From Oscillospiraceae bacterium (GTDB lineage Bacteria > Bacillota > Clostridia > Oscillospirales > Ruminococcaceae): DNA of 30,212 nucleotides. The DNA is taken from the NCBI GenBank assembly GCA_051893755.1, contig JBJFHQ010000370.1, positions 1 through 30,212 of the forward strand, written 5' to 3'. The translations under genes and the position numbers were made by a program. Each line of letters begins with the position of its first letter. Within the stretch, counting starts at the first letter, position 1. A model generated the notes under the pieces. That model did no database searches. It was not told the origin of the DNA and was given only the letters and a program-made list of their open reading frames with translations. Of the stretch, positions 10,548-16,386 are shown piece by piece.

Positions 10548-10907
10548 TTAATCAAAGATACCGTTTCGGAAATTCTCCGATTTTGTCAGGATCTCGTCAA
10601 TTTTTTCTCTTACGGTATAGCTGTGGCTGTTCTGAGTGATAAGCACCGTATCGGGTACCTCCTCCGCCATTTCAAGAAAGCTGAGATTCACAAGGATAAC
10701 GCTGCCCTTAAGTCTCGTAAGCTTAGCAAACCTCGCCCACGAGCCCGAGCTGTGAGCCGATGCAAGTATCTGGTCTACGGTCTCCTGCACGGTAAAGCTG
10801 TGGCCATTCTGCATGGTCACCACCGTATCGGGAGCCTCCTCCGCTATTTCTATGAAATTCTCGTTCACAAGAATTTCCGATTTATTCAGTCTGTTGAGTC
10901 TTATCAT
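10548..10907 (-). CDS. flbD: FlbD/SwrD family protein with two tandem FlbD domains
   Basis: 119 aa; two copies of the LxRLxxSxILVN..F.E.AEE.PDTV...QN.HS.TV.E..D.I pattern; canonical slot between flgE and motA. Confidence 0.9.
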   Translation of the reverse strand: MIRLNRLNKSEILVNENFIEIAEEAPDTVVTMQNGHSFTVQETVDQILASAHSSGSWARFAKLTRLKGSVILVNLSFLEMAEEVPDTVLITQNSHSYTVREKIDEILTKSENFRNGIFD

Positions 10908-11032: not shown

Positions 11033-12445
11033 TTATCTCTTAAGGTTTACAAGCTCTTCAAGCATGGAGTCCGAAGTGGTGATGATACGGGCATTTGCCT
11101 GGAAGCCTCTCTGTGTTACGATCATATCGGAGAACTCGCTTGCAAGGTTTACGTTGGACATCTCCAGCTTGGAGGAAGCCACCTTTCCTGCGCCCGAGGA
11201 GCCGGGAGCCTTGATATTCGCCTTGCCCGAAGCGGAGGACTCGCCGAATGCAGTCTCACCCAGCTGTTCGAGACCCTCAACGTTATCGAAGGTAGCGATC
11301 TCGATTCTTGCGAGCTTTTTGATCTGGCTTGCGTAGGTAGCTGTGAGCACGCCGTCGGAGCCTACCGAGAAGCCCTCCAGATCGCTGTATGCCAGCGGGC
11401 GCAGCTTCATATCGGCATAGATCGTATTGCCTCTGTCGTCGGTAGACTCAAAGGTCTTGTTTGTGGAGTTGTAGGTGTATACCTGAGTGGAAGCGGTACC
11501 TGTAGGCTTTCCGTTCTCGTCCACCTCCTGGAGAGTATACTGATAGGTCTTGAGGACCTCGCCGTTTTCGTCCTTGGTGGTGGTAGCGGTGAAGGAATAG
11601 TAGTTGCCGTTCTCGTCCATATAATAGCCGGTATCGGGGTCAAACTCAACGCCCTGGGTATTTATGTACTTTCCGTTTACATTATAGATGATGTAATCGG
11701 CAGCGACCTCTGTGGGAGTATCGGTGGGAGCTGCGAGATCGTCGTCTGTTCTCACGGTATTTCCCGAGGTATCGCGGTCGTATGCTATCTGATTGGTGGT
11801 ATCGGTGGGGTCAACGCCTGTGAACAGAGTCTGGGTAGTACCTGCAGTAGCGTCGGTGGTCCTGTACTTTTCGGGAACGTCAACGAAGTCGATCTGAGTA
11901 TAATCCTTGAATGCGTCCCATACCAGATCGTTTACGTTGATGATATCCAGCTCACCTGCATTCTCTGCGGGGATCTTCGCATCCATGAGGATAGAGGAAT
12001 AATCTCCGTCGTTTACCGTTCCGAGAACGAAGCGGTTAAGCGTATTTACGAGATTTCCCTCGGAGTCAACGCCGAAGCCGCCGTATCTTGTATAGTTTAC
12101 GCTCTCGACATTTCCGAGACTGGAAACGGTTCCTGTGATAAAGAAGCCGTCGCCGCTTATTGCAAGGTCAAGAGTACGGTTAGTGGTCTGGAACGAGGAA
12201 GCCGACATATCCTTGTCGATAGAGCTCACCTCAACGCCGTAGCCCACTGCGGACTCGTTATTTCCCGCAAAGGTAGCGGAGCCGCCCGTTGCCGACTTCT
12301 TCGCCTGATAGTAGATATCGGAGAAGCTCGTTCTTGAAGCCTTAAAGCCGTATGTATTAACGTTTGCGATGTTGTTGCCTATTACGTCCATTCTGGTCTG
12401 ATGGGCTGTAAGTCCTGCAACGCCCGAATAGAGTGATCTTACCAT
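11033..12445 (-). CDS. flgE: Flagellar hook protein FlgE
   Basis: 470 aa; RMDVIGNNIANVNTYGFKASR, DLAISGDGFF, YTRYGGFGVD, LEMSNVNLASEFSDMIVTQRGFQANAR. Confidence 0.96.
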   Translation of the reverse strand: MVRSLYSGVAGLTAHQTRMDVIGNNIANVNTYGFKASRTSFSDIYYQAKKSATGGSATFAGNNESAVGYGVEVSSIDKDMSASSFQTTNRTLDLAISGDGFFITGTVSSLGNVESVNYTRYGGFGVDSEGNLVNTLNRFVLGTVNDGDYSSILMDAKIPAENAGELDIINVNDLVWDAFKDYTQIDFVDVPEKYRTTDATAGTTQTLFTGVDPTDTTNQIAYDRDTSGNTVRTDDDLAAPTDTPTEVAADYIIYNVNGKYINTQGVEFDPDTGYYMDENGNYYSFTATTTKDENGEVLKTYQYTLQEVDENGKPTGTASTQVYTYNSTNKTFESTDDRGNTIYADMKLRPLAYSDLEGFSVGSDGVLTATYASQIKKLARIEIATFDNVEGLEQLGETAFGESSASGKANIKAPGSSGAGKVASSKLEMSNVNLASEFSDMIVTQRGFQANARIITTSDSMLEELVNLKR

Positions 12446-12539: not shown

Positions 12540-12995
12540 CTACATAATCACCGTAGAATCAATGTTTGTAAAAATATTTCCGGTCATTTCATCGGTGTTT
12601 ACGGTCGTAATCACCTTATTGTTTTTCACGCTTACCAGAAACGCCGCCTGATCAATGAGTATCAGAGCATTGTCCGACCCCTTTTCCTCTGCCAGCGAAA
12701 CAGCCTTTCCCAGCCGTTCGAGCCTTCCGTCGGAATAGAGGTCAATCCTGCGCTCGTTGATCCGTTCAACGGCGTGCTTGGAAAAATCCACGCCCGACTG
12801 TTCCGATAAGTCCTCTGCGTTTACGTCCGTTATCCTGCCCGCAGCGTCAAGCTGTTTTTGCAGCTCTGCCGCAAATGGCGATCCTGCCGCGCCGCTGTTT
12901 TCCGTGTTATCGCTTCTGCCGGCGGATACATCGGAGGCGCCTGTAGGAATGACCGACGAAATATTCCTGAGCTGCAAATATTCGCTTATAAGCAT
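12540..12995 (-). CDS. Flagellar operon protein (TIGR02530-like)
   Basis: 151 aa; FSKHAVERINER...KGSDNALIL...FLVSVKNNKVITTV...GNIFTNIDSTVIM; canonical slot between flgD and flgE in Firmicutes. Confidence 0.9.
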   Translation of the reverse strand: MLISEYLQLRNISSVIPTGASDVSAGRSDNTENSGAAGSPFAAELQKQLDAAGRITDVNAEDLSEQSGVDFSKHAVERINERRIDLYSDGRLERLGKAVSLAEEKGSDNALILIDQAAFLVSVKNNKVITTVNTDEMTGNIFTNIDSTVIM

Positions 12996-13021: not shown

Positions 13022-14818
13022 TCAGAGCAGTGTATCGGAATTATAATACGCATGCTGAGCCCACGCATTGCTGTAGCTGTCAAGGATAGCCTGTTCCTCT
13101 GCGGTATACTCCTTAGCTGCGGCTCTGATGACCTTCTCAAAGATAGTAAGCTTGTCCGCGATATTGAAATTGGTGGAGAAATCGCAGATCTCGTCCAGAG
13201 TATAATTACCGGTCGTAGTATACCATGTAGAGCCGCTGCTGCTGATTATCTCAACGCGCTGCGAACCGTCAGCCCATGTTACTACCTCGCCCAGCTTGCC
13301 CTTGCCGCTGAAGCCGATATCTGTGAAACGCTTTCCGCTTACGGTGCAGCCGAGGACAGTGTCGGTATTGATGACCGAGTTGATATCTGTGTTGTGAATA
13401 AAACGGATATCGCACATTTTTGTACCCAGTTCATTAGCAAGTGCTGCTTCTGCAGGATACTTGTTCTGGAATGCTCTGTATTCGGTAGGCCACTGAGTAT
13501 AAGCGCTGTTGCTTCCCACAGTTACGCCGAGATCAACTCCGGGACCCTCATATATCTCGGTAAGACCGCGGTCGGGATTTTTAGATGAAGTCATGTAGCT
13601 TGTTATCTGTCCGCTCTCGGTGTCAGTGCCTGACGCTGCGATGCTGCTCAGGTCGATATCCTCTTCCTCAATAAGGAGCTCTTCATCGTCCTCATCGTCC
13701 GCGCTGCTCATTGCAGAAGAATCTCTGACAGTAAATCCCTTTTCGTCGGAATGATCGTTAACTCCCGAAAGCATTGAAGAAACGTCCTCGACCTCGGTGG
13801 TATAATATCCGTCGCTGCCAAGAACCGCGCTGCGCTGTGCTGCCTGTGCTCTTTCCATGGGAGAGAGATAACCGCCGAGCACCTCGGTGAAGCTTTCGTC
13901 CTCTTCTTCATCCTTAGCGCCTTCAAAGTAGTATTCCTCCGCCAGCTCTTCGTCGTTTTCGATAGCGTTGTAATACTGTGCAAGCTTTTCGTTTGCGTAA
14001 TCATTCAGTGCATTGTTGTAATCATAGCCGTCCTCTGCCAGGAACATCGAAGCCTGTGAATCAGCAACTGACGCATATGAAACTGCGCCGGAATTTGCCG
14101 CCGCTTCGGTCTGAGCCGAGGTATCGTCGGTCACGGTACTGCCTGCGCCGCCGTCTGCCGCGGTATTGTCAGTATTGCCCTCTGTAACAGTATTGTCAGT
14201 ATCTGTCTCATCGGAGTCGTCACTGCTTGTATCAGGGGATATATTTGAGATCTCGGAGAATGCATAGAGCCTGTTATTGATAACAGCATAGCCCTCACCG
14301 CCCTTGACGATGATATTGGTGATCTTGCCTGTATACTCGCCGAGTTCGCTGTCCTTGACAGTTCCGTTCATGCCGATGACCTTGCTGATGGTGTTATAGG
14401 TGTTGGTATCAACGATATCGGTGACCTTATCGGAATCGTACTTAGTTCCGTTGACAAGCAGCTGATATTTGCCGTCGCTGATGATAACGCTTTCAACCAC
14501 GCCTGTATCAAAGTTGCTTCCGTCGTTGACGGTAACAGCCTTTCCTACCAGCGAAGCCGCATAGGAAATCTGCGTCTGCTCTGTCATCTGGGAGATAGCT
14601 TCCATCATGGAATAGCTTGCCATCTGCTGGATAAACTCGGAATCGCTCATAGGATCGTTGAAATCCTGATTGGACATCTGAGCCACCATAAGCTTCAGAT
14701 AGCCGTCAAAATCGAGATAGCTTGCAGAATCGGCATCTGCATCGGTATCCACCTTTGTGGAATAATATTTCAGAGTGACCGCACCGTTGGCGGAATCAAT
14801 GGCTAAATTATCTTCCAT
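13022..14818 (-). CDS. flgD: Hook-capping protein FlgD with very large C-terminal extension
   Basis: 598 aa; N-terminal LDFDGYLKLMVAQMSNQDFNDPMSDSEFIQQMASYS FlgD signature; SD AAGGAGG; 16-nt overlap with fliK. Confidence 0.9.
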   Translation of the reverse strand: MEDNLAIDSANGAVTLKYYSTKVDTDADADSASYLDFDGYLKLMVAQMSNQDFNDPMSDSEFIQQMASYSMMEAISQMTEQTQISYAASLVGKAVTVNDGSNFDTGVVESVIISDGKYQLLVNGTKYDSDKVTDIVDTNTYNTISKVIGMNGTVKDSELGEYTGKITNIIVKGGEGYAVINNRLYAFSEISNISPDTSSDDSDETDTDNTVTEGNTDNTAADGGAGSTVTDDTSAQTEAAANSGAVSYASVADSQASMFLAEDGYDYNNALNDYANEKLAQYYNAIENDEELAEEYYFEGAKDEEEDESFTEVLGGYLSPMERAQAAQRSAVLGSDGYYTTEVEDVSSMLSGVNDHSDEKGFTVRDSSAMSSADDEDDEELLIEEEDIDLSSIAASGTDTESGQITSYMTSSKNPDRGLTEIYEGPGVDLGVTVGSNSAYTQWPTEYRAFQNKYPAEAALANELGTKMCDIRFIHNTDINSVINTDTVLGCTVSGKRFTDIGFSGKGKLGEVVTWADGSQRVEIISSSGSTWYTTTGNYTLDEICDFSTNFNIADKLTIFEKVIRAAAKEYTAEEQAILDSYSNAWAQHAYYNSDTLL

Positions 14819-16386
14819 AGTTTTGCCTCCTTTGCAATATAATCGGCATCTGTGCTCTGTGAAACACCGCCGACCGTCAATTCGTCCTCTTCCTCGCTGT
14901 CAAAGCGGGTGCCGTCTGTTCTGTGATGCTCGCCCATGCCCTGCTGTCTGAAATTAAAAGCATTCTGTCCGCCGCTCATATCAAACGCAAGGTTCTGTCC
15001 CGACTGAGCAGGCTCAACAACGTTTATGCTGCTGACCTCGGTTCCCTTATCGGAAAGCGCCTGTGCAAGCTGTGCGGACCTGTCGGCGATAAGCTCGTTC
15101 ACATCACGGTTCTGCGCCGCAAATGTCACGGAGACCGCACCGTCCGCAGCCTTTTCGATCTTCACGGTGATCTCGCCCAGCGTTTCGGGAGTGAGCCTTA
15201 TCACAAGCTCCTTGCTTTCGGTAAAGCCGTCTGCCTGTTCCTCAAGCTTTTCGATGATCTGCTCCATAGTCTTAAACTGTGTTTCCTCGGGGACGCTTTC
15301 GGTCATCTCGGGCAATTGTACCTCCGATGAGCGTGTGTTCTGTCCCAGCTGTGCCGCTGCAGCTTCATCGTTTATCTCGTCGGAGCCGCTGCCGATCTTC
15401 GGGAGCACCCTTTCGCTGTTTTCGATAACTGCGCCGTCCTCTTCGGAGATATCCGCCGATCTGACGTTCACCTTAGAAGCAAACGAGATAAAGGTAACAT
15501 TCTGGAAAATATCCTCGCCCATATCGGCTGTCTGCATTTCCGGGGGAGCTGCCTGTGAGCTTGTCTGTGCATTTTCGGGCTTGACCGTGACTATCTCCTC
15601 GGAAAATCCTGTAGTTTCCGCCGCATTTTCCGCTGCTGCCGAAACTGCTTCTGCCAGCTCCTGTGCGAGCTGTCCGATAGTTTCATCATCCGCAGCGCCG
15701 ATAAGCGCCGCAAGCTGAGTATCGAGCTGCTTTTCGCCCTCATTTTCGGGAGAGACATCCGCAAAGCTTACAAACGAGAATATCCCGCCTGCCGCAAGAG
15801 CAGAAAGTGTGGCATCATCGTACTTTGTGTCAGACTTTACCTTCATTCGGCTCATGTCGATGTTCTCAAAAAGTCCTGCCAGCACATCGCCCGATGACTT
15901 CTCGTCATTCTTCCCGCCGCCGAAAAGCGCCGTGGAAAGCTCTGCCGAAAAGCTTGATATCTGGGTGATATCCGAGCTTGTCAGACTGTCGAACAGCTGC
16001 TGCCAGATGTCGGTATAGTCCGTGTCCTCGCTGTCGGTGCCCTCTGTGAACAGGAAATCGAACAGGTCGGTATTACCGGACTTTTCGCTTTCAGCCGACT
16101 TCATTGCAGACTGTAAATATGAGCCCACAAGGTACTTAAGCGCCGTTTCCGTGCTTTCGGACATAATTTCCGCCGTTACGCTGTCCGAGGAAAGCGTTTC
16201 GGGAGAGAATACTTCCGCCGCAGAAATATCCGCCGAGCTGTCTGTGGGAGTGCTCATAAGTCCGCCCAGTATGCCTTTGAAGGAGCCGCCGTCCGATACA
16301 CCGGAAAAATCGGAGACCGCACTGCCTGTTCCCGCCGTCATAGCCGAAAGTGCACCGCCTAAGACTGCGATATTTGTCATATCCAC
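14803..16386 (-). CDS. fliK: Hook-length control protein FliK
   Basis: 527 aa acidic, low-complexity N-terminus; C-terminal ELVIRLTPETLGEITVKI...VSVTFAA FliK domain; GTG start after AAAGGAGG; between fliJ and flgD. Confidence 0.92.
   Translation of the reverse strand: MDMTNIAVLGGALSAMTAGTGSAVSDFSGVSDGGSFKGILGGLMSTPTDSSADISAAEVFSPETLSSDSVTAEIMSESTETALKYLVGSYLQSAMKSAESEKSGNTDLFDFLFTEGTDSEDTDYTDIWQQLFDSLTSSDITQISSFSAELSTALFGGGKNDEKSSGDVLAGLFENIDMSRMKVKSDTKYDDATLSALAAGGIFSFVSFADVSPENEGEKQLDTQLAALIGAADDETIGQLAQELAEAVSAAAENAAETTGFSEEIVTVKPENAQTSSQAAPPEMQTADMGEDIFQNVTFISFASKVNVRSADISEEDGAVIENSERVLPKIGSGSDEINDEAAAAQLGQNTRSSEVQLPEMTESVPEETQFKTMEQIIEKLEEQADGFTESKELVIRLTPETLGEITVKIEKAADGAVSVTFAAQNRDVNELIADRSAQLAQALSDKGTEVSSINVVEPAQSGQNLAFDMSGGQNAFNFRQQGMGEHHRTDGTRFDSEEEDELTVGGVSQSTDADYIAKEAKLWKII

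Follow-up and report, generated by a model that had tools for sequence, protein, structure and literature searches.

[quoted passage not shown] The protein comprises a complete FlgD core, a long acidic tether, and a conserved C-terminal domain (C-domain), and neither stops nor frameshifts interrupt it. This long FlgD is a real, selected, and clade-specific elaboration of the hook cap. The preliminary description of the DNA covered 13022-14236, which corresponds to aa 195-598 of the 598-aa ORF, and claimed that the added region continues the FlgD frame. This has been borne out: the same frame is open in 10 other genomes, in which the long flgD frames encode 505-623 aa and have no internal stops, and in about 50 database proteins. 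In public annotation, the long FlgDs appear as 'hypothetical protein' or 'FlgD N-terminal domain-containing protein'.

The core (aa 1-195) has the full set of FlgD parts, namely the PF03963 region, an FxxxL gate motif, a stalk helix, and two Tudor-like barrels. PF03963 matches aa 19-81 with 49.9 bits against a cut-off of 27, and the NCBIfam model PRK09618, a 138-aa Bacillus-type FlgD, is matched by aa 18-136 (model positions 8-136 of 138, E 1.5e-19). The N-terminal export region and stalk helix occupy 14552..14818 on the minus strand (aa 1-89; Pfam FlgD), and the AlphaFold2 (AF2) model places helices at aa 37-49 and 59-89. The sequence F-D-G-Y-L (14696..14710, minus strand, aa 37-41) is an FxxxL motif at the position of the gate recognition motif of Salmonella FlgD, which consists of residues 36-40, has the form FxxxPhi, and docks on FlhB (PMC8983047). 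Among 45 clade sequences L41 never varies, and conservation of F37 and Y40 is 90% or higher; F37-D-G-Y-L41 is a putative gate recognition motif by position and conservation.

The second half of the core (14234..14551, minus strand, aa 90-195) contains two tandem Tudor-like β-barrels at aa 94-136 and 151-194, with pLDDT of about 80. In the full-length AF2 model, which was built on 45 homologues, these are two five-strand barrels that form the Tudor-like domain after the stalk helix. In Foldseek, the full-length model matches tandem Tudor domains (E 1.7e-4) as well as 7bhq_B, the Salmonella FlgD cap in situ (E 1.3e-3). PF13861 is weak in the core, at 20.2 bits and below its cut-off of 26.9. Both the AF2 model and Foldseek indicate that the core already includes one tandem barrel duplication.

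The gene lies in a classical Firmicute fla operon consisting of flgB, flgC, fliF, fliG, fliH, fliI, fliJ, fliK, flgD, flg_new, flgE, flbD, motA, motB, and fliM, all on the minus strand. It is situated between fliK and flg_new/flgE, as is typical of a hook cap. The hook-length control gene fliK (14803..16386, minus strand; PF02120, 53.5 bits) is directly upstream, and the flgD start overlaps its stop by 16 nt. A strong Shine-Dalgarno sequence, AAGGAGG, is found 7 nt 5' of the flgD ATG. Directly downstream is the gene for the TIGR02530 'flg_new' flagellar operon protein (12540..12995, minus strand; 89.5 bits against a cut-off of 83.2; PF12611), and the 470-aa hook protein FlgE is encoded at 11033..12445 on the same strand (PF00460, PF22692, PF06429). 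The genome, which is 84.5% complete, contains one PF03963 match, so this is its sole flgD, and each of the 10 other carriers of the long form contains one match as well. Because there is a single PF03963 match per carrier and the FlgD core is complete, the ORF at 13022..14818 is the working hook cap and not a paralogue.

About 50 full-length proteins were seen to contain the C-domain, solely as the C-terminal part of FlgD. Among 5.8 billion proteins, a word-indexed search gave 29 homologues with lengths of 406-690 aa, and a PF03963 match had been precomputed for 24. An exhaustive phmmer search of 1.84 billion cluster representatives gave 34 clusters, all with E<1e-10 and none weaker, and the matched region was always C-terminal in FlgD-sized proteins or made up a short fragment. 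Within the family sample of 201 genomes, FlgD is present in 82 and the C-domain in 11, which belong to 8 genera and each encode it within a single open frame of 505-625 aa; the other 71 FlgD-bearing genomes have short FlgD frames of 124-343 aa. The class sample comprises 399 genomes, only three others of which are from the same family, and the C-domain is absent from about 395 genomes of other families. The carriers are named at source as Oscillospiraceae and Huintestinicola MAGs. In a maximum-likelihood tree of the FlgD core alone, which omits L026, fragments shorter than 140 aa, and two duplicates, the 11 long forms lie on one side of a 99/99 branch. This fits a single origin of the add-on followed by vertical co-inheritance with FlgD, as judged from the core sequences.

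A search for stand-alone homologues, proposed in the preliminary description, found no genuine one, and profile and single-sequence searches confined to short proteins yielded nothing but strong members of the family. Two short proteins were considered as stand-alone copies and rejected. P0032 (130 aa) sits behind a run of N on scaffold L001, and on L014-L016 P0057 (161 aa) is preceded by an N gap or by the start of the contig. The remaining short matches come from contigs of at most a few kb and were regarded as fragments. The sole exception is the metagenomic contig L017, which has an in-frame TAG between a 152-aa FlgD core and an intact tether and C-domain; its closest relative, P0048, is fused. 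The TAG may mean that a truncated FlgD is viable, or that the add-on may be made separately.

The C-domain (13025..13486, minus strand, aa 445-598) has a mixed α/β structure in the AF2 model (pLDDT 84.2, pTM 0.77), which is based on alignment A1 of 32 C-termini. The globular domain that the preliminary description had noted exists, with its three cysteines and helical end. Its boundary has to be moved: conservation and model confidence set the start at about aa 445, 22 residues before the 'KMCDIRF' of that description. An internal start at the invariant M468 is unlikely to be the domain boundary, as it is preceded by a confidently modelled helix and by the conserved residues R448, Y454, E457, and A461. 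The model consists of a helix at aa 455-464, a four-strand antiparallel meander at aa 497-534, short helices, and a long C-terminal helix. The helices that follow the meander span aa 541-597 and include the terminal ones at 559-568 and 573-597, and helix makes up about 40% of the domain.

Conservation of the C-domain is high. The mean column identity in A1 is 49%, with twenty invariant positions, eight of which are polar (N476, E511, T514, Q520, R521, E523, T535, and E561). A Gly-rich hairpin in A1 has the motif G-x-S-G-x-G-x-L-G-E-V-V-T-x-x-D-G-x-Q-R-V-E. Together, the eight invariant polar residues and this hairpin suggest that the domain has a specific site for binding or catalysis. The best-conserved block of the whole protein is aa 501-520, with a score of 0.84 compared to 0.79 for the top FlgD block. 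Between this genome and that of a second species of the genus (G158), dN/dS is 0.054 for the C-domain, 0.035 for the core of the C-domain, and 0.074 for the FlgD core. By these ratios, the C-domain is under purifying selection as strong as that on the FlgD core. C469, C491, and C545, all within the C-domain, are the only cysteines of the protein. C545 alone is largely kept (26 of 32 sequences); the others have T, I, L, or F in its place, which points to a buried position and not to a catalytic role.

These values also bear on the question of whether the added region is a functionless appendage or an annotation artefact, arising by read-through into junk or by the misjoining of two genes. The in-frame TAG after the core on L017 is the one feature consistent with such an origin. 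The fusion is, however, kept in 11 genomes of 8 genera and in about 50 proteins, the C-domain holds the best-conserved block at a dN/dS of 0.054, and the remaining 'split' cases are explained by gaps in scaffolds or by the ends of contigs. Junk or an annotation artefact is therefore extremely improbable.

The preliminary description could not assign the C-domain, and this still holds, as no known family or fold was matched in Pfam, NCBIfam, PDB, BFVD, or ESM Atlas. Even at E<=10, no Pfam family was matched by more than two of the 32 C-domains, and NCBIfam gave no match. A profile search of PDB sequences returned only chance nanobody matches with E of about 0.5. Foldseek of the C-domain model against the PDB gave a best E of 0.26, the BFVD fold search gave E>=0.085, and the ESM Atlas fold search gave TM<=0.36. 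The highest score of the ESM feature search, 0.77, lies within the range of noise. Neither sequence nor fold searches showed similarity to wall hydrolases, carbohydrate-binding modules, toxins, or adhesins. The C-domain thus represents a new clade-restricted protein family and, judging from the model, apparently a new fold.

Several candidate identities were considered individually, and none gained support. The T3S4 domain of FliK (PF02120) matches none of the 32 C-domains, while it does match the neighbouring FliK. A lysozyme-like lead came from the ESM features (GH46 and VgrG3-C clusters, 0.76-0.77); these scores are in the noise range and are accompanied by neither fold nor Pfam support. 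The TriTu immunity protein (PF24689; 7ZHM chain D) was taken as a chance match, as a weak Pfam match and a weak VIA match coincide and the profile search does not confirm them. The pattern G-x-G-x-x-G-x-V resembles the glycine loop of kinases, and the G-E...(10)...R spacing resembles the phosphate-binding cassette of cNMP-binding proteins; both resemblances were rejected, as the folds and the families concerned are absent from all searches.

The C-domain is also not a known FlgD Ig/FnIII module, which the preliminary description had named as an alternative identity. PF13860 is silent at E<=10 in all 32 C-domains, and the model is α/β and not an all-β sandwich. A related explanation is that the C-domain arose by an ancient internal duplication of the helix-plus-Tudor segment of FlgD and now forms a second, outer cap element that, for example, aids FlgE folding or stabilises the cap. 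The core already has one tandem barrel duplication, and hhalign sets the β-meander on the FlgD Tudor region of the clade's own cores (78 columns, 28% identity, E 0.053). The same register is obtained against 25 short FlgDs of other genera (hhalign E 0.14), but the targets are homologous and this agreement is not independent. Both hhalign results are non-significant, with a probability of 1% or less, and the Pfam FlgD and FlgD_tudor models match none of the 32 C-domains. In addition, the model is a flat four-strand meander on helices and not a five-strand barrel, and no FlgD or Tudor structure is among its fold matches. An origin by duplication of a cap module is accordingly rather unlikely.

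The core and the C-domain are joined by an acidic, mostly disordered tether of 249 aa (13487..14233, minus strand, aa 196-444), with pLDDT below 50 for most of its length. It contains 24.1% D+E, 3.2% K+R, and 21% S+T, and has a net charge of -52. The acidic linker of the preliminary description is therefore present, but it is longer than the roughly 215 aa claimed and is not purely low-complexity. AF2 predicts an amphipathic helix at aa 267-296 (13931..14020, minus strand), with block pLDDT up to 76, and a short second helix at aa 320-330. A heptad-like helix occupies the place equivalent to aa 267-296 in P0048, a form with a short linker. The DNA that encodes the tether has no tandem repeats of appreciable size.

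Among relatives, the tether is poorly alignable and shows low column conservation. It measures between about 60 and 300 aa and is always acidic (14-27% D+E and 2-10% K+R). Constant acidity together with an approximately five-fold variation in length is as expected of a spacer. The tether dN/dS of 0.177 in the same species pair is looser than that of the domains and not neutral. [quoted passage not shown] It differs from FliK in that the C-domain has no PF02120 match and a normal FliK is encoded next door.

The position of the C-domain behind the core determines its probable route. During flagellar assembly, the hook cap is displaced by FlgK. Early fT3SS substrates are recognised via N-terminal signals and threaded through the apparatus unfolded (PMC8983047). 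As the tether and C-domain follow the N-terminal FlgD export signals, they would have to be exported with FlgD. In the Salmonella cap, FlgD has an N-terminal stalk, and its C-terminal domains form outward distal petals (PMC8595650). Since the C-terminal side of FlgD faces outward in this cap, a C-terminal extension points away from the hook. By analogy with Salmonella, export of the C-domain and its display at the hook tip would follow from this topology.

[quoted passage not shown] In one clade of gut Oscillospiraceae, the single functional hook cap has gained a C-terminal add-on. According to this reading, five tethered C-domains would emerge last, refold outside the cell, and hang from the distal face of the pentameric cap during hook growth. 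They would leave with the cap when FlgK displaces it, and the C-domain would act extracellularly in that short window as a ligand-binding or remodelling module. Candidate targets would be an envelope layer (wall polymer, S-layer, or capsule) or nascent hook subunits.

FlgJ of β- and γ-proteobacteria consists of a rod cap domain, a linker, and a GH73 muramidase. Like FlgJ, the long FlgD is an exported flagellar cap protein with a second globular domain on a C-terminal linker, and the likeness is in layout only. Unlike FlgJ, it caps the hook and not the rod, and its C-domain shows no sequence or fold similarity to GH73 or lysozyme-like folds: the FlgJ-type GH73 family (PF01832) has no Pfam match in the 32 C-domains, and no lysozyme-like structure is among the fold matches. 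A more specific form of the preferred reading is that an enzyme or binding module of a new fold, carried on acidic tethers, opens or grips an envelope layer. It would be a Gram-positive hook-stage counterpart of the FlgJ muramidase and the first FlgD to deliver a second activity; this specific form is quite improbable.

Several points stand against the extracellular module. No search pointed to any catalytic, adhesive, or ligand-binding activity. The hook cap is transient and has five subunits only, which means a small dose of any tethered enzyme. In Gram-positive bacteria it is the rod and not the hook that crosses the wall, and thus a wall task for FlgD is not required by current models. In addition, 71 of the 82 flagellated relatives manage with a short FlgD, the mostly conserved and probably buried cysteine gives no hint of extracellular specialisation, and the L017 frame with its TAG between core and tether may indicate that the add-on is dispensable or separable.

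A different possibility is that the C-domain works before export, as a secretion-coupled regulator. The known exported regulator is FlgM, which reports 'hook complete'. In the case of the long FlgD, the folded C-domain would bind a regulator of flagellar or other genes in the cytoplasm and be removed once the export gate begins to secrete early substrates, so that FlgD would signal 'export apparatus active'. A precedent comes from Vibrio, where FlgD in the cytoplasm binds the kinase FlrB and FlrBC output is repressed (bioRxiv 10.64898/2026.06.17.732909). A stably folded C-domain (pLDDT 84) on a protein that is unfolded for export would be active before export, all cysteines of the protein lie in the C-domain, and cap function does not need the domain, as it is absent in 71 of 82 relatives. 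Against this, FlgM (PF04316) is present in all 11 carriers, which also excludes the C-domain as an FlgM replacement, and the searches gave no similarity to anti-sigma factors, kinase-binding modules, or DNA-binding modules. A cytoplasmic inhibitor has no obvious need of a long acidic spacer. The long FlgD would resemble FlgM and Vibrio FlgD in being an export substrate whose cytoplasmic level could carry regulatory information. It differs from them in the lack of homology and in the presence of FlgM in the same genomes, and a regulatory role here is conjecture. Overall, regulation is unlikely, if less so than duplication.

The preliminary description suggested that the cap carries a cargo domain, an effector, adhesin, or enzyme, which is displayed at the hook tip and then released. 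As assessed here, FlgD would serve as a type III vehicle, and the shed domain would work in the gut lumen in one of these roles or as a signal. All of the protein lies behind the FlgD export signals and the hook cap is shed once the hook is complete (PMC8595650), and the C-domain is strongly conserved in host-associated gut bacteria; both agree with this proposal. The C-domain is, however, never found on another carrier or alone, which is unusual for effector or adhesin modules. It shows no similarity to toxins, adhesins, or hydrolases, and the stoichiometry of a cap protein is low. The findings neither favour nor contradict a cargo that acts after release, and a cytoplasmic regulator or a duplicated cap module would explain them just as well. 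Release of a cargo domain is about as improbable as an origin by duplication, and the extracellular module that acts while still attached to the cap is preferred over it.

The long FlgD shares with the FlgD family (PF03963 and PF13861; 7BHQ/7EHA; PRK09618) the export and stalk region, the FxxxL motif, the Tudor-like barrels, the position between fliK and flgE, and the single copy. Compared to other FlgDs of the same bacterial family, which have 124-343 aa, it has about 400 additional residues that comprise the acidic tether and the C-domain, a domain that all other FlgDs lack. It also differs from the FlgDs that have an Ig-like/FnIII domain, as it lacks that domain.

FlgD is commonly seen as a minimal scaffold of transient presence. 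In one clade of gut Clostridia that are uncultured or little studied, it has grown to three times its size with a domain that exceeds the cap core in conservation and for which the billions of proteins searched contain no relative outside these FlgDs. Action of the C-domain at the hook tip would show that hook caps, like the rod (FlgJ) and filament (FliD) caps, can host additional functions. Action in the cytoplasm would make this the second independent example of FlgD serving as an export-coupled signal. In both cases the C-domain defines a new protein family, and its confident model can serve structural and genetic studies.

The C-domain of the long FlgD contains a methionine, Met468 (codon 468 of flgD; 13415-13417, minus strand), which lies in the motif G-T-x-M-x-D-I-R-F and is invariant in the aligned proteins (45 of 45). 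Met468 is probably a buried core residue, while internal initiation at this position may be an alternative reading. In a gapped scaffold, a gene caller took the same methionine as the start.

The database homologues P0014, P0015, and P0016, from ENA/Logan metagenomes, form a sub-group; they are 674-690 aa long and have a divergent N-terminus without a precomputed PF03963 match. They also have an extra extension of STEQAAAE-like repeats beyond the conserved domain, and thus the C-domain is sometimes non-terminal. The metagenomic contig L017 (ENA ERZ27236857 k141_431520), whose protein is a relative of the short-linker form, contains an in-frame TAG (L017:2821-2823; context ...SDDG*QTENTE...) directly after the FlgD core, with an intact tether and C-domain downstream. 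Possible explanations for this TAG are a nonsense mutation of recent origin, an error in sequencing, a gene that is naturally split, or read-through of the codon.

FliK (14803-16386, minus strand; 527 aa) is, judged by eye from its sequence, apparently acidic and Ser/Thr-rich, as is the FlgD tether. In FlbD (10548-10907, minus strand; 119 aa), Pfam PF06289 matches two stretches, which is consistent with the tandem duplication proposed in the preliminary description. In FlgE (11033-12445, minus strand; 470 aa), the D1 domain is separated from the C-terminal rod domain by a large insertion rich in Thr, Asp, Asn, and Tyr. Among relatives bearing the FlgD C-domain, FlgE ranges from 312 to 485 aa, and its size therefore does not follow the FlgD add-on, that is, the tether with the C-domain.
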